45,978 bases of DNA, taken from an uncultured Candidatus Saccharibacteria bacterium. Lineage in GTDB: Bacteria > Patescibacteriota > Minisyncoccia > Phycocordibacterales > GWA1-40-21. Both the position numbers and the translations under genes were made by a program. A model generated the notes under the pieces. It ran no database searches, was not told where the DNA came from, and saw nothing but the letters and a program-made list of their open reading frames with translations. Each line of letters opens with the position of its first letter. The stretch's first letter is position 1. Below are positions 5,569-29,681 of the stretch, piece by piece. Location of the stretch: positions 30,032-76,009 of the forward strand of contig CAYZNH010000001.1 in the NCBI GenBank assembly GCA_964479775.1, read 5' to 3'.

Positions 5569-6453
5569 ATGTTTTTTACAAAAAAGAAAAAGGGTTTAAG
5601 ACAATATATAAAAGAAGCAGAAGAAAAAGGTGTTGCTATAGGTCATTTTAATATTTCAAACCTTGAAACATTGAGAGGTATTTTTGACGCCGCGAAGAAA
5701 CTTGATTTACCGGTTATTATAGGAACAGCGGAAGGTGAAAGAAAATTTATAGGGACAAAACAAGCAGTTGCTCTCGTAAAAAGTTTGAGGGATGAATATG
5801 ATTATCCAATATTTCTAAATGCGGACCATACTTATTCTGTAGAAGGTGTAAAAGAATGTATAGATGCTGGTTATGATGCTGTAATATTTGATGGAACAGG
5901 TTTATCTCATGAGGAGAATATTAAAATTACAAAACAATGTGTAGATTATGCTAGAAGTATTAATCCAGAAATTATAGTTGAAGCTGAGCTCGGTTTTATC
6001 GGCACTTCTTCAAAAGTTTTAGATAAAATTCCTGAAGGTGTAAAAATAACTGAAGAATATTTAACTAAACCAGAAGACGCAAAAAAATTTATTGAAGATA
6101 CTGGTATAGACATGATTGCTCCTGCTGTTGGTAATATTCATGGAATGCTTAAGGGTGGGGTAGACCCAGCTTTAAATATTAAGTTAATAGGGGAAATACA
6201 AAAAGTGATAAATATTCCGATGGTACTTCATGGTGCTTCGGGAAATTCTACAAATGATATAAAAGAAGCTATAAAAAATGGAATGTCAGTTGTTCATGTT
6301 AATACTGAGATTCGCGTGTCTTTCAAAAAGGCACTTGAAGAATCATTAAAATCTAAACCAGATGAGGTTGCTCCATATAAGTATATGGACAAATGTATAG
6401 AGTCTGTGGAAGCTGTTGTTAAAGAAAAACTTAAGATTTTTAACTTTCTTTAG
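5569..6453 (+). CDS. fba: class II fructose-bisphosphate aldolase
   Basis: AIGHFNISNLE, LNADHT, and VLHGASG...HVNTE are class II aldolase zinc and substrate motifs. Confidence 0.85.
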   Translation: MFFTKKKKGLRQYIKEAEEKGVAIGHFNISNLETLRGIFDAAKKLDLPVIIGTAEGERKFIGTKQAVALVKSLRDEYDYPIFLNADHTYSVEGVKECIDAGYDAVIFDGTGLSHEENIKITKQCVDYARSINPEIIVEAELGFIGTSSKVLDKIPEGVKITEEYLTKPEDAKKFIEDTGIDMIAPAVGNIHGMLKGGVDPALNIKLIGEIQKVINIPMVLHGASGNSTNDIKEAIKNGMSVVHVNTEIRVSFKKALEESLKSKPDEVAPYKYMDKCIESVEAVVKEKLKIFNFL

Positions 6454-6541
6454 GTTATAGGTCCTAGTTTTTAGTTATTAGTAGAATAATGCCTTAAAAT
6501 AAGGTTTATTTTGCTTGTATTTTGACAAGATACAAAAAACC

Positions 6542-6570
6542 TTGACAAATACCCCAAAAGGTGTATTATT
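6542..6570 (+). promoter_or_regulatory. sigma70-type promoter of GC-rich cassette 1
   Basis: TTGACA 6542-6547, 16-nt spacer, TATTAT 6564-6569 preceded by TG. A second TTGACAA copy lies 20 nt upstream at 6522-6528. Confidence 0.6.
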
Positions 6571-6576
6571 ATATAT

Positions 6577-6726
6577 AAGATAGTTCTTTGAGTGAATCAA
6601 GAAGTTCGCCACATTTTTTAGTGGATTTACCATATAAATCAATTGAATTGATTTCGGGCAAGCAAAAGTCTATTGAAAACTGTGGCGAACTGTAGTAACC
6701 ACACAGAAAGAAACAAAAAAGAAAGG
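6577..6726 (+). promoter_or_regulatory. about 150-nt structured 5' leader of cassette 1
   Basis: 10-bp long-range stem GTTCGCCACA (6604-6613) / TGTGGCGAAC (6681-6690) encloses the hairpin AAATCAA-TTGAA-TTGATTT. The block CTGTGGCGAACTGTAGTA resembles the cassette 2 leader. Confidence 0.45.
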
Positions 6727-7416
6727 ATGATAATAGTGAACACACTAATTACATCTGGTCAGAAGGAATCGGTTATTCGAGTCGTTGTGGACGCAGTGCG
6801 AAAGGGAATGGACGCGGTGATCAATGAACTCTCCGCTTCTGGAACCATTAACACGGCGAATCTTCAGCGAGTGCTCGCACAAGGTGATGCTTTGGCGGGT
6901 CATCTGATTGCCGAAGCGAAAGCTAAGATGACCGAGCTCGCCGAACAAGTCGTCGGCTACCTCAAACTCATCTCTGGCTCCGAAATCATCACAATCGGCG
7001 AGACCTATGGCAAAAGCACCATTGCTCATGCCAAGGACACCTTTCCTGGATACATTGACTCAGATTTCCTGAACTATGGAACGGATGTCCAAGGTCAGCC
7101 GACCAAGGAAATACCTGTACAGGTGTTTGAGATGATCAAGAATGGTAACTTCGCTCAGATATTCGGTGGCTTCGGTGAAAACCTCGACCGTCTGTGTCTG
7201 ACACAGAGTCAAATCATCCGTTTTGTGAAGGATCACACCAAGTGGCTTCGCACAGATGGTTATGGAACCTTCTTCTTGTTCAAGGAAAACGGCGAGTTTT
7301 TCGTCGCTGGCGTGAGCTGGAGCGAGGGTAGGCTCAGGGTGGATGCTAGTCGTCTGTCGGACGACGGCGTTTGGAATGCCTGGTTCCGCCATCGGGTTGT
7401 GGTTCCGCAACTGTGA
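6727..7416 (+). CDS. hypothetical protein, GC-rich cassette 1 (distant paralogue of 28639-29298)
   Basis: The ORF track starts at TTG 6673. ATG 6727 (MIIVNTL...), preceded by AAAGGA, is the more likely start. Hand count gives 33/60 GC in 6781-6840 versus 20/60 in the neighbouring fba (6301-6360). I recognise no family. Confidence 0.6.
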   Translation: MIIVNTLITSGQKESVIRVVVDAVRKGMDAVINELSASGTINTANLQRVLAQGDALAGHLIAEAKAKMTELAEQVVGYLKLISGSEIITIGETYGKSTIAHAKDTFPGYIDSDFLNYGTDVQGQPTKEIPVQVFEMIKNGNFAQIFGGFGENLDRLCLTQSQIIRFVKDHTKWLRTDGYGTFFLFKENGEFFVAGVSWSEGRLRVDASRLSDDGVWNAWFRHRVVVPQL

Positions 7417-7418
7417 CA

Positions 7419-7470
7419 CTTTGTCACTTTGTTCTTTGTCTCTTTGAGACTTAGACACTTTGACCCTTTG
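7419..7470 (+). repeat. six CTTTG motifs at 7-8 nt (once 16 nt) spacing in the cassette 1 3' UTR
   Basis: CTTTG at 7419, 7427, 7434, 7442, 7458 and 7466, starting immediately after the TGA stop (7414-7416). Confidence 0.7.
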
Positions 7471-7509
7471 GTATCTTGCGTATGCAAGCTCTACCGAAGG
7501 GTCATTTTT
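7463..7509 (+). terminator. rho-independent terminator of cassette 1
   Basis: GACCCTTTGG (7463-7472) pairs with CCGAAGGGTC (7494-7503). Inner hairpin CTTGC-GTAT-GCAAG, then ATTTTT. Confidence 0.75.
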
Positions 7510-7541
7510 AATATAAAATTTGTTATTTTTTATAAAAAGAC

Positions 7542-10104: not shown

Positions 10105-11097
10105 ATGCAAGATTCAATTGAAGAATTTAGAAAAAATAAAAAAACTTCATTTTTAGCAGAAGAATATATTAGATTGGAAAATGAAGAAGAGTCTATAAAA
10201 GAAATGGCGGAAAAAGACTCTGCTATGTTTGCTTTAGCTGAGGAAGAGTTAAATAATCTCCGAACTCAAAAAGAAAATATTTTTACACAAATGAAATCTA
10301 TCACTTCTTCAGAAGAAGAGGAGGATAAATTTCCAAATGAAGTTGTGATGGAAATTCGTGCAGGTGTTGGTGGTGAAGAAGCGGCTATTTTTGCAGAGGA
10401 TTTGTTGAGAATGTATGGAAGATTAGCAGATCTTAAAAAATGGTCTTTTAATTTGGTTGATGAATCAAAAAGTTCTTTGGGTGGGTATAAAGAAGTTTCT
10501 ATTGAAATAAAAGGTAGAGATGTATATAAAGAATTGAGGTTTGAGACTGGGGTTCATAGAGTTCAGAGAGTTCCCGCCACTGAAAAATCTGGAAGAGTAC
10601 ATACTTCAACGGCTTCTGTTGCGATACTTCCCATAAGAAAGAAGACAAAATTTGATATTAAACAAACAGATTTACAGATTGAATTTTCTAGATCTGGTGG
10701 AGCTGGTGGTCAAAATGTAAATAAAGTTGAAACCGCCGTTAGAATAGTTCACATACCGACTGGAATAGATGTTAGATCAACTGCAGAAAGAAGTCAGTTA
10801 AAAAACAGGGAAAAAGCGATGTCTATTCTTATTGCTAAATTAGAAATCTTAAAAGAAGAAGAAGAAGCAAAGAAGTTTGCTGGTGAAAGAAAAGAACAGA
10901 TAGGTACAGCCGATAGATCAGAGAAAATTAGAACTTATAATATCTTACAAGATAGAGTTACTGATCATAGGGTTAAACATTCTTGGTATAATATAGAAAA
11001 TATTTTAGCAGGAGATGGTCTTGTTGATATTGTTGATTATGTTGTTAAGGCAGAGTGTAAGCCACAGGCAGATGGTGATGTAAATAACGATGAATAA
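10105..11097 (+). CDS. prfA: peptide chain release factor 1
   Basis: PAT tripeptide (RVPATEKSGRVHTS) and GGQ motif (SGGAGGQNVNKVETAVRIVHIPTG). Confidence 0.9.
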   Translation: MQDSIEEFRKNKKTSFLAEEYIRLENEEESIKEMAEKDSAMFALAEEELNNLRTQKENIFTQMKSITSSEEEEDKFPNEVVMEIRAGVGGEEAAIFAEDLLRMYGRLADLKKWSFNLVDESKSSLGGYKEVSIEIKGRDVYKELRFETGVHRVQRVPATEKSGRVHTSTASVAILPIRKKTKFDIKQTDLQIEFSRSGGAGGQNVNKVETAVRIVHIPTGIDVRSTAERSQLKNREKAMSILIAKLEILKEEEEAKKFAGERKEQIGTADRSEKIRTYNILQDRVTDHRVKHSWYNIENILAGDGLVDIVDYVVKAECKPQADGDVNNDE

Positions 11098-11124
11098 TTA
11101 AAATCTATTAAATTGGGTTATCTA

Positions 11125-23885: not shown

Positions 23886-25808
23886 ATGAAAAATAAAACA
23901 GTAAACAAAACAATATTCTCAAAAAATGCTTTTTCTGTAGAAAAAACTTTTATAATTTCTATATTAGTAGTTAGTCTATTTTCTATATTAACAAAGAATG
24001 CTCAAGCTGATGTTAATACTCCTTGTTCTGCAACATGTAGTCAATATTCTAATAGTGGTAATTATACCTCTTGGAGAGTTAGTGCTGTTTCTGGTTCTTG
24101 TGATAATAACAGTAAAAAATATTATTATAAGACAGATGAAAGTAATACAGATAGATTGTTTTATACTTCAGCAGTTGGTTTATCAAGTAATACTTCTCGT
24201 GTTTTTTCTACTCCTTCAGATGTTGGTAGTGTTTACGTTCGTATAACAACTGAAAATGATGGTAGTACAGGATGGATTTCTTGTGGTTCTGGTAGTAAAG
24301 AGAATATCGATAATATATCTTCTTTAACAGCTTCTTGTTCTCCGAATAAGAGTTCTATAGAAATTGGTGAATCTGTTGTTTGGACAGTCAATGCTTCTGG
24401 TCCTTATTCAAATTATTCTTATACTTGGTCTGGTACAGATGATATTTCAAGTAATAATAGTTCTGTAACAAAAACATACAATACTTCAGGTACAAAAACA
24501 GCGAGGGTTACTGTTAAAAATTATAAAACATGTTCGTCTTGTTCAAAAACAATAACTGTGTCTTGTGGTTCTGTTGTTGTTAATGATATAGACGATCTTG
24601 ATGTTTCTTGTTCGGCTAATCCAGATAATATTGAAATTGGTGAATCTACAACTTGGACAGCAAGTGTCTCTGGTGGTACAGGTTCATATTCATACTCATG
24701 GTCAGGTACAAACAGTTTGTCTGGTAGTTCAAAGACTATTACAAAAACATATACTAGTGAAGGGACAAAGTCTGCAACTGTTAGGGTAACATCTGGTGGT
24801 AAAACTGGTTATGCAAACTGTTCTATGAGTGTGGAGGAAGAGATTAACGATAATCTAGAAGTTTCTTGTTATGCTGATGATGATTCTGTAGAAACAGGTG
24901 ATTCAATTAAATGGATTGCTGAAGCAGATGGTGGAAGTGGTTCATATTCATACTCATGGTCAGGTACAAACAGTTTATCTGGTAGTTCAAAGACTGTTAC
25001 AAAAAAATATACTTCAGATGGTGAAAAATATGCAAAGGTTAGAGTAACTTCTGGTGGACAAACAGAATATGCTACATGTTATGCAGATGTTGAGGAAGAA
25101 GATGAAGATGATGACTTAGAAGTTTCTTGTTATGCTGATGATGATTCTGTAGAAACGGGTGATTCAATTAAATGGATTGCTGAAGCTGACGGCGGAAGTG
25201 GTTCGTATAAATACAGCTGGTCTGGTACAGATGATCTTGATGGAAGTTCACGAACAGTAACAGAAAGGTATTATGACGAGGGTGAAAAAAAAGCTAGAGT
25301 TAAGGTAACTTCTGGTGGACAAACAGAATATGCCACATGTTATGCAGATGTTGAAGACGATAATCAAGTTTTGTCATATGTTCAAACATCTAATACTATG
25401 CCTTTGGTTTCTTCTGTATATTTAAGTGATATTCCTTATACTGGTGCTGGTGATAATATTAAGATAGTATTGTTCATTACAGCTTTGGTTTTGTGGAGTA
25501 TGCTATTGGCTTATTATTTCTTAAAAAAGAAATTAAATAACAATGAGGTTGTTCCTGAAATAATAAAAAATTCTGATAACAAATCTTTTGAAGTAAGTAA
25601 TCTTTTTGAAGAAAAAAGTGTAACTGAAAATAAAGCAATACAAGATATAGAAGATTATGCAAGAATGAATAAAATTATACTTTCATCTTCTGCATCAGAA
25701 AAAATCTTTAAACTTTCAAAACTTGGAAAAGTTAAAGCGAATGAAGTTATAAAAGGTTTATCTATTGGTGATTGGGTTGCTGTAAGTGAGGAAGATATAA
25801 GAGAATAA
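23886..25808 (+). CDS. surface protein with four PKD-like repeats, an internal sortase-type signal (IPYTG + TM + KKK) and a 90-aa cytoplasmic tail
   Basis: N-terminal signal/anchor. Four repeats of the pattern SC..(N/D)..(I/V)E.GES..W.A...GG.GSY.YSWSGT. IPYTGAG at residues 516-522, then a hydrophobic stretch and KKK. Confidence 0.7.
   Translation: MKNKTVNKTIFSKNAFSVEKTFIISILVVSLFSILTKNAQADVNTPCSATCSQYSNSGNYTSWRVSAVSGSCDNNSKKYYYKTDESNTDRLFYTSAVGLSSNTSRVFSTPSDVGSVYVRITTENDGSTGWISCGSGSKENIDNISSLTASCSPNKSSIEIGESVVWTVNASGPYSNYSYTWSGTDDISSNNSSVTKTYNTSGTKTARVTVKNYKTCSSCSKTITVSCGSVVVNDIDDLDVSCSANPDNIEIGESTTWTASVSGGTGSYSYSWSGTNSLSGSSKTITKTYTSEGTKSATVRVTSGGKTGYANCSMSVEEEINDNLEVSCYADDDSVETGDSIKWIAEADGGSGSYSYSWSGTNSLSGSSKTVTKKYTSDGEKYAKVRVTSGGQTEYATCYADVEEEDEDDDLEVSCYADDDSVETGDSIKWIAEADGGSGSYKYSWSGTDDLDGSSRTVTERYYDEGEKKARVKVTSGGQTEYATCYADVEDDNQVLSYVQTSNTMPLVSSVYLSDIPYTGAGDNIKIVLFITALVLWSMLLAYYFLKKKLNNNEVVPEIIKNSDNKSFEVSNLFEEKSVTENKAIQDIEDYARMNKIILSSSASEKIFKLSKLGKVKANEVIKGLSIGDWVAVSEEDIRE
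24321..25367 (+). repeat. in-frame tandem repeats (about 261 bp) encoding four PKD-like modules, mosaic identity
   Basis: Repeat 3 (24855-25115) and repeat 4 (25116-25367) are near-identical over the first 70 nt and the last 50 nt. The middle of repeat 3 (24941-25012) instead matches repeat 2 (24681-24755). Confidence 0.85.
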
Positions 25809-28108: not shown

Positions 28109-28438
28109 ATGAAAAAAGATACTTCATTTTATGATTTTGTTATTTATGATTTGATGAATAGCCTTTCTGATATTTCTTCACGACCAATGATGAGTGGTTG
28201 GTGTATTTATTCTAATAAAATTCCTTTTGCTGCGATTATTGGAAATGAACTATTTTTTAAAGTAAAAGATAGTGAGATGAAAGAGAAGTTAAAAAAACTT
28301 GGATCTCTACAATTTAAATATAAAAAGAAAGATAAAAAAGTAGTAACGATGTCTTACTGGTCTGTACCAGAAGAGTCGATAGATAACTCAGATTTATTTC
28401 TTGAATTGGCGAATGAAGTTATAAAAGGCGTAATTTGA
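28109..28438 (+). CDS. TfoX N-terminal domain protein
   Basis: LSDISSRPMMSGWCIYSNKIPFAAIIGNELFFKV matches the TfoX_N pattern (R.MFGG..ly..g..fa.i.d..lylK). Confidence 0.55.
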   Translation: MKKDTSFYDFVIYDLMNSLSDISSRPMMSGWCIYSNKIPFAAIIGNELFFKVKDSEMKEKLKKLGSLQFKYKKKDKKVVTMSYWSVPEESIDNSDLFLELANEVIKGVI

Positions 28439-28463
28439 CAAGTGATATTAATAGGTGTATAAT
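28435..28463 (+). promoter_or_regulatory. perfect-consensus sigma70 promoter of GC-rich cassette 2
   Basis: TTGACA 28435-28440 (overlaps the TGA stop of the upstream gene), 17-nt spacer, TATAAT 28458-28463. Shares TTGACAA and AGGTGTAT with the cassette 1 promoter. Confidence 0.7.
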
Positions 28464-28469
28464 TAACAT

Positions 28470-28638
28470 AGAGTAAGGTCTTTAAAAAGTCATTTAAAAT
28501 TTGCCACAGCAGAAAGTCTTTAGATTATTGAGGTCTTTCTGCTGTGGCAAAACTACAGTACTTTTAGCTCTCTCTTATAACTAAGGCAATTCCGCTTTAG
28601 AATATTAGACGGCAGAAGTAGAAGGAAGGAAACTGACC
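28470..28638 (+). promoter_or_regulatory. about 170-nt structured 5' leader of cassette 2
   Basis: Perfect 16-bp stem, 28501-28516 (TTGCCACAGCAGAAAG) with 28535-28550 (CTTTCTGCTGTGGCAA). Followed by AACTACAGTA, then SD GAAGGAAGGA at 28621-28630. Confidence 0.55.
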
Positions 28639-29298
28639 ATGGATATCATGCTCAGAGAAGTACTAAAGGAACTCGTATATGTCCAAGAAAATCTTCTTGG
28701 GATAATTTACGACTTCTTGAAGAAGTTGAATGCCGACAAGACGGGGGAATTTTTGAAGCGATTCAAACTTTTTCTTCGTGACGAGCTCGTCGTTAGTAAA
28801 CCCGTTCGAGTTTGGAAAACGTGGATGACGATCAAACTCGGCACACTCAAGAATGTTGAAGAAATTCGCAAAGCCCTCAAGGCTGGCGGAAACAACATCA
28901 GTGACTGGGCGAATGACATCCTCGGCAAGCCCGCTTTCACGGTGAGCGAAACCGAACAGGAAGTCGAACTCGTGAATGTCTCCGTCGAAGAGTTGGGCTT
29001 CAAGCAAGGTGCTTGCTATGCAGACATCTGCAAGCGTGCATTGGAGCTTGGACTCGACCTGTGTCCTGCTGAAGTTGGTCCCCAACTGCGTTTGCAGTAT
29101 AAGGATCAGCCCAAGGGAACATACGTGGTAGTGGCGATGAATGCTATTATCGCTTCGGATGGCGATCTCATCGTGTTCGGTGTGGGGAGTTACGATGGTA
29201 GCGATCAGTATCTCGATGCCGACTTCGGCTATGCTGGCTATGTCTGGGTCGCTCACAGCCGTTTTGTGTTCCTGCGTCGCAAGAGCACTCAGAACTAG
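28639..29298 (+). CDS. hypothetical protein, GC-rich cassette 2 (distant paralogue of 6727-7416)
   Basis: 219-aa ORF with an SD 8 nt upstream. Hand count gives 34/60 GC in 28921-28980. The C-terminal region LCPAEVGPQLRLQYKDQPKG...VFGVGSYDG...LDAD...VWVAHSRFVFLRRK aligns by eye with the C-terminus of cassette 1. Confidence 0.65.
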   Translation: MDIMLREVLKELVYVQENLLGIIYDFLKKLNADKTGEFLKRFKLFLRDELVVSKPVRVWKTWMTIKLGTLKNVEEIRKALKAGGNNISDWANDILGKPAFTVSETEQEVELVNVSVEELGFKQGACYADICKRALELGLDLCPAEVGPQLRLQYKDQPKGTYVVVAMNAIIASDGDLIVFGVGSYDGSDQYLDADFGYAGYVWVAHSRFVFLRRKSTQN

Positions 29299-29368
29299 GT
29301 CCCTCAGATCTTTTGGATCCTTGGACCTTGGTTTAGTTAGAAGTACTGAAAAGGATGGTTAATAAATT

Positions 29369-29408
29369 GGCGGTGTTCTGTGTAATGCAGAACATCGCCT
29401 TTTCTTTT
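29369..29408 (+). terminator. rho-independent terminator of cassette 2
   Basis: GGCGGTGTTCTG (29369-29380) / CAGAACATCGCC (29388-29399), then TTTTCTTTT. Confidence 0.8.
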
Positions 29409-29541
29409 GGAAAATAACGAGCGAAGCGACTATATTTTCCTAGACCCCATTAAACTTTTTTGATTATTAAATTATTTATATAATAATTATATATATGTAA
29501 CTTATGTAAATAATATACAAAAGTAAAAAGTTGTACGGGGT
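29409..29541. repeat. second copy of the hairpin-plus-GC-clamp AT-rich element
   Basis: Stem GGAAAATA (29409-29416) / TATTTTCC (29433-29440). Its 16-nt loop ACGAGCGAAGCGACTA is 14/16 identical to the loop at 16356-16371. Then ACCCC (29444-29448) ... GGGGT (29537-29541) around AT-rich DNA. Confidence 0.55.
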
Positions 29542-29559: not shown

Positions 29560-29666
29560 GTCATTACGAGAAGGTACTCCGACGTAGTAATCCATGTTTG
29601 TATTTATTTTTAAAATTAAATTAATTAACCTGGATTGCCACAGGTGAGTACACCTTCGCAATGACG
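29560..29666. repeat. palindromic double-hairpin repeat (GCGAAGC-core family), copy 2
   Basis: The left arm is GTCATTACGAGAAGGTACTCCGACGTAGTAATCCATG. The reverse complement of the right arm is CGTCATTGCGAAGGTGTACTCACCTGTGGCAATCCAGG. An AT-rich loop of about 32 nt separates them, and the ends match copy 27642-27709. Confidence 0.65.
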
Positions 29667-29669
29667 TGC

Positions 29670-29681
29670 GGGGGGGGGGGG
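29670..29681. repeat. G12 homopolymer tract
   Basis: Twelve consecutive G (29670-29681) immediately after the palindromic element, in a genome of about 30% GC. Confidence 0.9.

Follow-up and report, generated by a model that had tools for sequence, protein, structure and literature searches.

The locus described here is a self-contained unit (cassette 1) at positions 6522-7510 of the 45,978-nt stretch of DNA that was analysed (the window), and it reads, like all features given below, on the + strand. The unit has ~51% GC and a GC content at third codon positions (GC3) of 0.57, against 31.2% GC for the window overall and a host GC3 of 0.18. In 200-nt segments, positions 6651-7500 reach up to 54% GC, the sole other such stretch being 28651-29450, and ~30% GC is regained on both flanks of cassette 1. 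The open reading frame has a GC content of 50.6%, with 0.565, 0.383 and 0.570 at codon positions 1, 2 and 3, compared with 0.434, 0.320 and 0.177 in 26 host genes (GC3 sd 0.049, maximum 0.381), so that its GC3 lies ~8 sd from that of the host genes. An earlier note, made from the sequence alone, had described a ~55% GC unit in a ~30% GC genome, equipped with a promoter, a structured leader and a terminator and with flanks that return at once to host composition, and had proposed a sliding-window GC and codon-adaptation check. All of the described features are present, the background and the flanks are as claimed, and composition marks cassette 1 as an outlier; the figure of ~55% is too high for the reading frame itself.

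The 229-aa reading frame recognised in the note is present at 6727-7416 when counted from ATG 6727; judged by the homologues, GTG 6736, ~8 nt 3' of an AAAGGA Shine-Dalgarno motif at 6722-6727, is more likely the true start (226 aa). The AlphaFold (AF2) model of the protein (pLDDT 90.6) has three helices in its N-terminal part and an alpha/beta domain at the C-terminus. No signal peptide or transmembrane (TM) segment is apparent in the protein, which is apparently cytoplasmic.

Upstream of the gene, the TTGACAA box is duplicated (6522 and 6542), as had been seen before. The copy at 6522-6528 reads as a second -35-like hexamer without a good -10, and that at 6542 opens a sigma-70-type promoter (TTGACA, 16 nt, TATTAT; 6542-6569) with an 11/12 match, placing the predicted transcription start site (TSS) near 6576-6577. 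A duplicated box resembling this pair also occurs at homologous locus L006, and TTGACA, ~17 nt, (G)TGTATAAT is found at the same position in the loci homologous to cassette 1. A conserved TSS-proximal box, AAGATAGTTCTTTGA (6577-6591), has counterparts in most family loci and in a second cassette of the window (AGWTAGTTCTTTRA at 28472-28486). The remainder of the leader (6692-6735) comprises a CTGTAGTAACCACACAG box and a conserved AAAGAAAGGATGATAA ribosome-binding region, which locus comparison finds kept in L001, L002, L004, L007, L017, L022, L025 and L028.

Between these elements lies a 5'-leader RNA hairpin (6603-6691) of 11+14 bp with an MFE of -41.7 kcal/mol (z = -4.6; 0 of 200 shuffles fold as well); the long-range leader stem claimed earlier is therefore real but longer than the 10 bp assigned to it. 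The leader hairpin is common to several target families as a 23-bp, 56-nt motif with strong covariation, and that of cassette 1 equals the conserved family hairpin plus a ~34-nt loop insertion. Its homologue at L001 (4908-4962) scores 51 bits with RNA motif model R1, which gives no score to cassette 1's own copy because of the loop insertion, and the homology of this copy is based on the L001 comparison and the fold. The canonical form of the motif occurs in the second cassette at 28498-28553 (R1 59.3 bits, E = 2e-14; fold z = -6.3), the sense strand scoring above the antisense strand. A riboswitch-like switch, in which CTGTGG would pair with a downstream CCACACAG box, was rejected since many family members carry GAGTCCAGCAA there. 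Rfam 15 at gathering level returned two tRNAs and nothing else for the whole window, and relaxed Rfam searches with leader, body and tail of both cassettes gave far sub-threshold generic hairpin matches only.

The gene is followed by a pyrimidine-rich YCTTTG repeat tract (7414-7460) that folds into small hairpins at 7413-7427 and 7438-7450, and an equivalent tract is kept 3' of the stop codon family-wide. Next comes a 13+5-bp hairpin, GACCCTTTGGTA..TACCGAAGGGTC, with a T-run (7461-7510; hairpin at 7461-7504). The repeat-rich 3' UTR and the terminator of the earlier description correspond to these repeats, the three hairpins and the U-run, and the 3' tail as a whole folds with z = -8.8.

Cassette 2, at 28435-29408, has a layout identical to that of cassette 1: a promoter (TTGACA, 17 nt, TATAAT; 28435-28463) read from the sequence and aligned to that of cassette 1, the leader hairpin, a 219-aa gene of a different family (28639-29298), and a 3' tail (29299-29408) that reads as CCTTGG-type repeats, a hairpin at 29369-29399 and a T-run. 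The two proteins (ORF1 and ORF2) do not match by BLASTP, and a weak in-register alignment of their profiles spans 131 columns (hhalign E = 0.0016, probability 16%), which hints that cassette 2 may come from a sister family of cassette 1.

Both families are restricted to Patescibacteria, with at least 394 members for ORF1 (family 1) and at least 940 for ORF2 (family 2), and their genes occupy different, non-syntenic loci in different genomes. The best match among the GTDB representatives listed, to which the source genome does not belong, is 70% identical, and one comparison locus, L001, encodes a protein 83% identical to that of cassette 1. Alignments A4 and A3 display an invariant scaffold interleaved with hypervariable positions in the last ~45 residues only. 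Pfam, PHROGs and PADLOC searches with both proteins gave no significant match and PDB sequence-profile searches no match at all, in keeping with the lack of any recognised motif in the first reading. C-type lectin domains are the canonical scaffold of variable regions (VRs) in diversity-generating retroelements (DGRs). With the ORF1 model as query, Foldseek found nothing in the PDB at E <= 0.001 and no C-type lectin in the top 50; the top matches of the ORF2 model are C-type lectin domains, weak ones (E 0.1-1; TM on target 0.42-0.47). The models suggest, at best, a distant variant of the fold seen in C-type lectins.

The nature of these genes is revealed by their homologues. In a DGR, error-prone reverse transcription is used to alter the tail of a binding protein, and the hallmark is that the mismatches between the repeats fall at template adenines. 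In dozens of other genomes the target gene is followed ~330-360 nt downstream by a template repeat (TR) and then by a reverse transcriptase (RT). Among reference genomes, 25 family-1 loci have the order gene, TR (median 332 nt downstream) and RT (~600 nt further), with 399 of 417 mismatches (95.7%) at TR adenines. Ten further family-1 loci, where the tblastn match runs into the TR, contribute 162 of 175, and the corresponding count for 23 family-2 loci is 404 of 416 (97.1%). At L001, for example, the 3' end of the gene (5573-5695) is repeated at 6029-6151 with 84% identity and 18 of 20 mismatches at TR adenines, and the RT is encoded at 6724-7539; at L004 all 18 mismatches are of this type. 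The variable protein columns fall where the TRs have AAC/AAT codons. The RT lies within ~1.5 kb downstream in ~28 family-1 and ~25 family-2 loci, and ~25 family-1 loci have neither TR nor RT within 10 kb. Two MAGs that contain both kinds of contig demonstrate, at the sequence level, that such remote copies are served in trans in other genomes: the VR of remote L014 and a TR on another contig (L009) of the same MAG differ by 13 mismatches, 12 of them at adenines, and remote L035 compares with the L022 TR at 14 of 16. L065 and the L072 TR, tried as a trans pair within one MAG, share 70% identity with mixed mismatches and no adenine-only pattern, so that L065 probably depends on a different TR or on none. 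The VR of L026 is 99% identical to its TR, and thus not all copies look recently diversified.

Given the adenine-specific TR/VR mismatches in the homologues, the last ~114 nt of the cassette 1 gene (7300-7413) are identified as the VR, which ends in an IMH-like ...CATCGGGTTGTGGTTCCGCAACTG. The scattered hypervariable columns of A4 map to this segment. Over the 114-nt alignment to the L001 TR, the mismatch rate is 0.52 at TR adenines and 0.06-0.21 at other bases; for both VRs of the window against foreign TRs it is 0.45-0.58 per TR adenine against 0.06-0.33, adenine mismatches being 2-5 times those at other bases. The cassette 2 VR (~29155-29282) was delimited by its hypervariable C-terminus and by alignment to foreign TRs. 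All inspected family-1 pairs have a VR end of ...CCGCAACTG and a TR end of ...CCGAAACTG, a difference that is consistent with the IMH/IMH* distinction. No TR copy of either VR was found in the window by repeat search and blastn (word size 7), nor any RT or Avd by tblastn with the family RT and Avd; with no TR or RT in the window, cassette 1 is therefore a remote target. Its terminal hairpin and T-run are kept in family loci, TR-adjacent and remote alike. By analogy with BPP-1 (PMC3240598), we read the 7461-7510 hairpin as an intrinsic terminator and candidate DGR target-site hairpin, and the 3' tail would thereby act as a homing signal in retrohoming target recognition.

On the evidence of its reading frame, its family, the AF2 model and the VR/TR pairs in homologues, the gene at 6727-7416 is assigned as a DGR variable-protein (target) gene. 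The VR/TR/RT architecture of the family replaces the expression cassette of unknown function of the earlier note, and the membership of cassette 1 in a DGR-target family is virtually certain, with cassette 2 read as a second target. We further propose that cassette 1 is a stand-alone remote target of a Patescibacteria-type DGR that is diversified in trans today, and we consider it likely that this statement holds in full, present-day diversification included, for a single sequence whose cognate DGR would lie outside the 45,978-nt window. Cassette 1 would be transcribed from its own sigma-70 promoter, and its product would be a small protein of two parts, apparently cytoplasmic, with the variable region in the final ~38 codons (7300-7413). 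A DGR elsewhere in the genome, presumably still active and consisting of RT, Avd and a TR rich in AAC codons, would supply cDNA with random copying of the template adenines. This cDNA would replace the VR, with the conserved VR end (...GTGGTTCCGCAACTG) and the 3' tail rich in hairpins as guides, elements that are conserved in the window copy, and about a dozen residues on a surface that presumably binds a ligand would be continually re-randomised.

Two other readings concern the gene itself. It could be an orphan or fossil target, a family member whose DGR or TR has been lost and whose VR is frozen in one fixed specificity, as might be expected from 46 kb without TR, RT or Avd, from the ~25 family-1 loci that likewise have nothing within 10 kb, and from the near identity of VR and TR at L026. 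However, remote copies in two MAGs differ from a TR elsewhere almost only at adenines, cassette 1 has an intact VR end and intact homing-related 3' elements that closely resemble those of L001, a TR-adjacent copy, being near-identical to them, and two different intact targets are retained in one genome; we regard this explanation as unlikely. In AT-rich genomes a GC-rich island is often a structured RNA, and a large structured non-coding RNA with an open frame by chance would fit such an island as well as its strongly structured leader and tail. That reading is rejected as exceedingly improbable given the frame-preserving conservation of the gene: hundreds of protein-level homologues (at least 394) keep length and frame, 34 synonymous against 26 amino-acid differences separate the 190 non-VR codons from those of the 83%-identical L001 homologue, the AF2 models are confident (pLDDT 90.6 for cassette 1) and Rfam is without a match, all in agreement with the coding interpretation of the earlier note.

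That note had further concluded that the cassette was recently acquired or mobile, i.e. an expression unit from a GC-richer donor that has not yet drifted to host composition. In favour of this reading are the contrast in GC3 (0.57 vs 0.18), the different, non-syntenic positions of the gene across genomes, and the promoter, leader and terminator that travel along with it, the homology to L001 extending ~17 nt beyond the T-run. The different loci stand; recency does not, although composition is indeed an outlier and the frame is conserved. GC excess was found in 33 of 34 and 44 of 45 homologous loci with flank GC of 31-55%, and between family members in AT-rich hosts the four-fold degenerate sites show just 27-46% identity, near saturation, yet GC3 stays high in all of them. 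The RT genes beside TR-adjacent copies are host-like (GC 0.369, against 0.399 for the flanks and 0.494 for the target over 44 loci), and GC-richness is therefore not a sign of recent transfer; it is family-wide, long-maintained and specific to the target genes. The window holds no integrase, transposase or flanking direct repeats at cassette 1, and since every homologue belongs to Patescibacteria, there is no sign of a GC-rich donor from outside. A recent or mobile acquisition is accordingly very improbable, and the remote DGR target remains the preferred reading.

Several known systems invite comparison. The Patescibacteria-restricted DGR clade 2 has targets without recognisable domains or TM segments (Roux et al. 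2021, PMC8144416), and CPR DGRs have unclassified 'UVR' VR classes (Wu et al. 2018, PMC5758913). The present genes resemble these targets in taxon, C-terminal VR, adenine-specific TR/VR mismatches, the order target, TR, RT in TR-adjacent relatives, and small proteins without TM segment, signal peptide or Pfam domain. Unlike them, both copies in the window are remote, the 46 kb containing neither a TR nor an RT, a class stated as not detectable by Roux et al. (PMC8144416) and not found for CPR by Wu et al. (PMC5758913). The target site of Mtd in BPP-1 comprises the VR, the IMH and a downstream hairpin/cruciform, with a single 8-bp GC-rich stem and a GRNA tetraloop 4 nt past the VR (Guo et al. 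2011, PMC3240598). Cassette 1 likewise has its VR at the gene 3' end, a VR end that is conserved, escapes mutation and is unlike that of the TR, and inverted repeats just 3' of the stop codon; it differs in its ~45-nt YCTTTG tract with small hairpins followed by the 13+5-bp terminator-like hairpin, for which a role in homing is presumed, and in that its protein is not a phage tail fibre. The arrangement proposed here, one DGR that serves several dispersed targets in trans, also occurs in Treponema, with seven non-adjacent targets (Wu et al. 2018, PMC5758913), but those targets, which are surface or lipoproteins, have VR domains of clear C-type lectin type, whereas the present proteins are apparently cytoplasmic. 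Like RT-10 and the other RT motifs of Rfam that are associated with DGRs (Weinberg et al. 2017, PMC5737381), the leader hairpin is a structured, DGR-linked RNA recognised by covariation; it differs from them in lying in the 5' UTR of target mRNAs, remote targets included, and in having no Rfam family. We found no mention of a target-specific GC island or of the leader hairpin in the DGR papers compared here, and both appear to be undescribed.

What had looked like a mystery mobile cassette thus receives a concrete, testable identity, that of two hypermutation targets at separate sites of a single ultra-small genome. The number of diversified Patescibacteria proteins is probably underestimated, and the GC3 island in an AT-rich genome and the 56-nt covarying leader hairpin may serve as markers for orphan targets without an adjacent RT. 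A broader idea, which we put forward tentatively and consider doubtful, is that patescibacterial DGR targets make up a modular regulon whose genes are small and GC-rich, and in which the hairpin and the whole-gene GC content are functionally tied to the DGR. If true, shuffled N-terminal modules would be joined to C-terminal VR domains of at least three or four families, with one common leader hairpin ahead of them all. The link could be a recognition or processing element that couples homing with the target mRNA (or target transcription), or a DGR-linked conversion process by which the entire gene stays GC-rich (target genes have ~50-60% GC, RT genes do not) and the neighbouring RT AT-rich. 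In BPP-1, sequence upstream is not needed for homing. Avoidance of adenine as the cause of the GC island was rejected, as third positions outside the VR are depleted of A and T to a similar degree (0.20 and 0.25, against 0.37 and 0.46 in the host); a depletion specifically of A is seen only in the VR, where its frequency at third codon positions is 0.03.

Only two stretches of the window, whose overall GC content is 31.2%, exceed 50% GC in 200-nt windows: 6651-7500 (maximum 54%) and 28651-29450 (maximum 54.5%). The first belongs to cassette 1 (6522-7510), which carries TTGACAA boxes at 6522 and 6542, a promoter (TTGACA at 6542, 16 nt, TATTAT; score 11/12), a leader hairpin at 6603-6691 (11+14 bp, z = -4.6), a 229-aa ORF (ORF1, 6727-7416) and a 3' tail (YCTTTG repeats and three hairpins, the last at 7461-7504, then a U-run; z = -8.8). 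The features listed for this unit in the earlier note (GC-rich ORF, TTGACAA boxes, promoter, ORF and repeat tail) were all found, and the long stem claimed for the leader is present as the 6603-6691 hairpin. ORF1 has 50.6% GC, with 0.565/0.383/0.570 at codon positions 1/2/3 compared with 0.434/0.320/0.177 in 26 host genes (GC3 standard deviation 0.049, maximum 0.381), which bears out the description of a GC-rich unit in an AT-rich genome. Comparison with homologues suggests GTG 6736 as the true start, since it lies about 8 nt past a conserved AAAGGA and ATG 6727 overlaps that Shine-Dalgarno sequence. Cassette 2 (28435-29408) has the same layout: promoter, perfect leader hairpin (17+5 bp), 219-aa ORF (ORF2, 28639-29298; GC3 0.577), repeat-rich tail and terminator. 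Between it and dnaE lies an inverted repeat (GTCATTACGAGAAGGTACTC at 29560-29579, GAGTACACCTTCGCAATGAC at 29646-29665) followed by a 12-G run (29670-29681); the whole element may be a small MITE-like repeat, and the leader-hairpin loop of a homologous locus, L002, holds GTCATTCCC...GGGAATGAC-type elements similar to the inverted repeat. At 24332-25351, three to four tandem repeats of about 261 nt (61-80% identical) lie within the 640-aa ORF 23886-25808, whose product is a repeat-domain protein.

The ORF1 and ORF2 proteins have no match in Pfam, PHROGs, PADLOC or PDB sequences. At E <= 0.01 their families comprise 394 (family 1) and 940 (family 2; over 940 in another count) proteins, all unannotated. 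Wherever a source or record is named, the name is that of a Patescibacteria lineage, among them Paceibacteria and Nomura-, Zambryski-, Taylor-, Moran-, Falkow- and Uhrbacteria; some member MAGs bear automatic 'Saccharibacteria' or 'Gammaproteobacteria' labels. The family-2 alignment has almost invariant central residues (about 130) and a tail of about 45 residues in which invariant positions are interleaved with positions accepting nearly any residue; family 1 has the same pattern. At L001, the locus of an 83%-identical ORF1 homologue, the gene's 3'-terminal 123 nt are repeated 334 nt downstream with 84% identity, 18 of the 20 mismatches fall at adenines of the downstream copy, and this copy, the template repeat (TR), reads NWNEGRLKVNANRLSNDNVWNAENRHRIVVPKL and is followed by a reverse transcriptase (RT) ORF. 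All 18 mismatches between variable region (VR) and TR at L004 are at adenines. The order gene, TR (median 332 nt downstream) and RT (about 600 nt further) recurs in 25 family-1 loci of reference genomes, with 399/417 mismatches at TR adenines; the proportion is 162/175 in ten further family-1 loci where the protein match extends into the TR itself, and 404/416 in 23 metagenomic loci of family 2. Adenine-specific TR-to-VR differences beside an RT are the hallmark of diversity-generating retroelements (DGRs). Because their homologues show exactly such differences adjoining an RT, ORF1 and ORF2 are assigned, on comparative grounds, as variable-protein genes of DGRs, with 7300-7413 as the VR in cassette 1; the label 'unknown function' attached to cassette 1 can thus be dropped. 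At L001 an Avd-like ORF (Pfam bAvd; 6160-6336, minus strand) lies between TR and RT on the strand opposite to both; either the architecture is unusual or the ORF call is an artefact. The L026 VR (10550-10671) differs from its TR (11001-11122) at 1 of 122 positions, and this target looks undiversified or newly reset. Paralogous targets at L056 (10301-10531 and 7923-8153) and L006 (2735-2965 and 817-1049) have 3' ends, VR included, that are 100% identical over 231 nt and 90% identical over 233 nt, respectively, suggesting that one target was recently duplicated from, or converted by, the other.

A blastn search at word 7 finds neither VR repeated within the window, and tblastn detects no RT or Avd there; about 25 family-1 loci are also without a TR or RT inside 10 kb. 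In two MAGs, contigs with such a remote copy and contigs with a TR were both available for comparison: the L014 VR differs from the TR of L009, on a separate contig of one assembly, with 12 of 13 mismatches at adenines, and the L035 VR from the L022 TR with 14 of 16. These adenine-biased mismatches identify remote copies as genuine trans targets; a third same-MAG pair (L065/L072) does not fit the pattern. Set against the closest TRs of other genomes, not their own TR, the window VRs mismatch at rates of 0.45-0.58 at adenines and 0.06-0.33 at other positions. We consider it probable that both window targets are diversified in trans by a DGR elsewhere in the genome; the absence of an RT from the window would be shared by orphan targets whose genome's DGR is gone, a reading that we regard as unlikely. 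At its end the VR reads ...CCGCAACTG, and TRs read ...CCGAAACTG. The tract and hairpin 3' of the VR are kept in TR-adjacent and remote copies alike, and window and L001 match nearly base for base here until about 17 nt beyond the T-run. Retrohoming in BPP-1 depends in cis on the end of the VR (IMH) and on a hairpin downstream of it, upstream sequence being dispensable (PMC3240598); by likeness to these, the VR end and 3' hairpin of cassette 1 are candidate retrohoming elements. At L009, L010, L012, L018, L020 and other TR-adjacent loci, the terminator T-run is immediately followed by TGTATACT or TGTATAAT, probably the -10 of a promoter for the TR-containing RNA; the matching spot in the window reads TGTTATTTT.

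The GC excess had been taken as the sign of a recently acquired or mobile cassette, a reading that the families do not sustain. Gene GC exceeds that of the flanks by a mean of 0.134 in family 1 (34 full-length loci, >0.05 in 33) and 0.148 in family 2 (45 loci, >0.05 in 44), and it tracks host GC only partially (slopes 0.40 and 0.56; hosts 31-55% GC). Among members in AT-rich hosts, four-fold degenerate sites are 27-46% identical, which is near saturation, and each copy nevertheless retains a GC3 of about 0.55. In 44 RT-containing loci the targets average 0.494 GC, the RT genes 0.369 and the flanks 0.399. Since GC3 is kept across nearly saturated sites and the RT is host-like, the enrichment is a maintained trait that belongs to the target gene rather than to the DGR or a donor genome. 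The VR alone is A-poor (A3 = 0.03); at third positions outside it A and T are both depleted, so that adenine avoidance does not account for the island.

The upstream regions of both families have in common a promoter, a box AGWTAGTTCTTTRA at about +1, a hairpin of about 56 nt and a ribosome-binding region AAAGAAAGGATGAYAA. The hairpin occurs in the window, L001 and about 90 other loci, is lost in some lineages (L004, L008, L022) and has no match in Rfam 15. Across 33 distinct hairpins its 23-bp stem is 92.5% paired, against 35-46% with the 3' partner slid; 18 of the 23 pairs have changes on both sides, and compensatory cells number 151 against 40 +/- 5 in shuffles (0/500), the seed set having needed an exact 6-nt complement that favoured six of the 23 pairs. 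Two G.U pairs are conserved, and most matches score 10-19 bits higher with the covariance model on the sense than on the antisense strand, two near-perfect palindromes giving similar scores on both; these observations point to a structure formed by the mRNA and not to a palindrome in the DNA. Over 1.26 Mb of window and family-1 sequence and 0.57 Mb of family-2 loci, nearly all significant matches to the model (R1) are located 50-450 nt upstream of target genes, and extra matches in those loci precede more small GC-rich ORFs with VR-like C-termini; several families of DGR-target genes have the hairpin, which is specific to them. In the window R1 scores just the cassette 2 hairpin (28498-28553, 59.3 bits), missing that of cassette 1, which is of the L001 type (L001 4908-4962) with a loop insertion of about 34 nt. 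RNase III substrates typically include 23-bp perfect helices, and a role in the processing of target mRNAs, or in controlling their stability, is our tentative preference; mRNA stability, from a GC-rich body set between the 5' hairpin and several 3' hairpins, would also be one coherent guess at the cause of the GC island.

The window targets belong to a known kind, the domain-less targets of Patescibacteria DGR clade 2 (PMC8144416) and the CPR VR classes left unclassified (PMC5758913). What the window contributes beyond these is a pair of remote targets, one from each family, in a single genome; large surveys were unable to detect this class (PMC8144416), and one survey found none for CPR (PMC5758913). 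The GC island confined to the target gene and the leader hairpin, both family-wide, also appear not to have been reported before.

In the AlphaFold models of ORF1 (pLDDT 90.6) and ORF2 (86.9), both confident, a helical N-terminal part precedes a C-terminal alpha/beta domain; the order of secondary-structure elements is identical, and the VR supplies the final three or four strands. Comparing the two profiles gives a weak in-register alignment over 131 columns (E = 0.0016, probability 16%). For the ORF1 model, the PDB yields no significant match. The top matches of the ORF2 model are weak (E 0.1-1; TM on target 0.42-0.47) and consistently C-type lectin domains (Mincle, BDCA2, NKG2D, NKp80, NKR-P1), which would fit, without proving, the expectation of Roux et al. 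that CPR VR domains lacking annotation will prove to be diverged C-Lec variants (PMC8144416). Neither protein has an apparent signal peptide or TM segment, as is also the case for clade-2 targets (PMC8144416). N-terminal modules are shuffled among C-terminal families, the module MKY..L.LGQ.EA.VNKLGG being joined to ORF1-type, ORF2-type and a third VR-like C-terminus. GC-rich, hairpin-headed ORFs of about 180-210 aa at L113 (1544-2143), L158 (3179-3718) and L085 (1154-1777) have N-terminal modules that also occur in families 1 and 2, joined to VR-like C-termini of other types (such as ...GWNAGFQVLSRK and ...RWLSRGWSDNDPAVVFGK), and look like additional DGR-target families.
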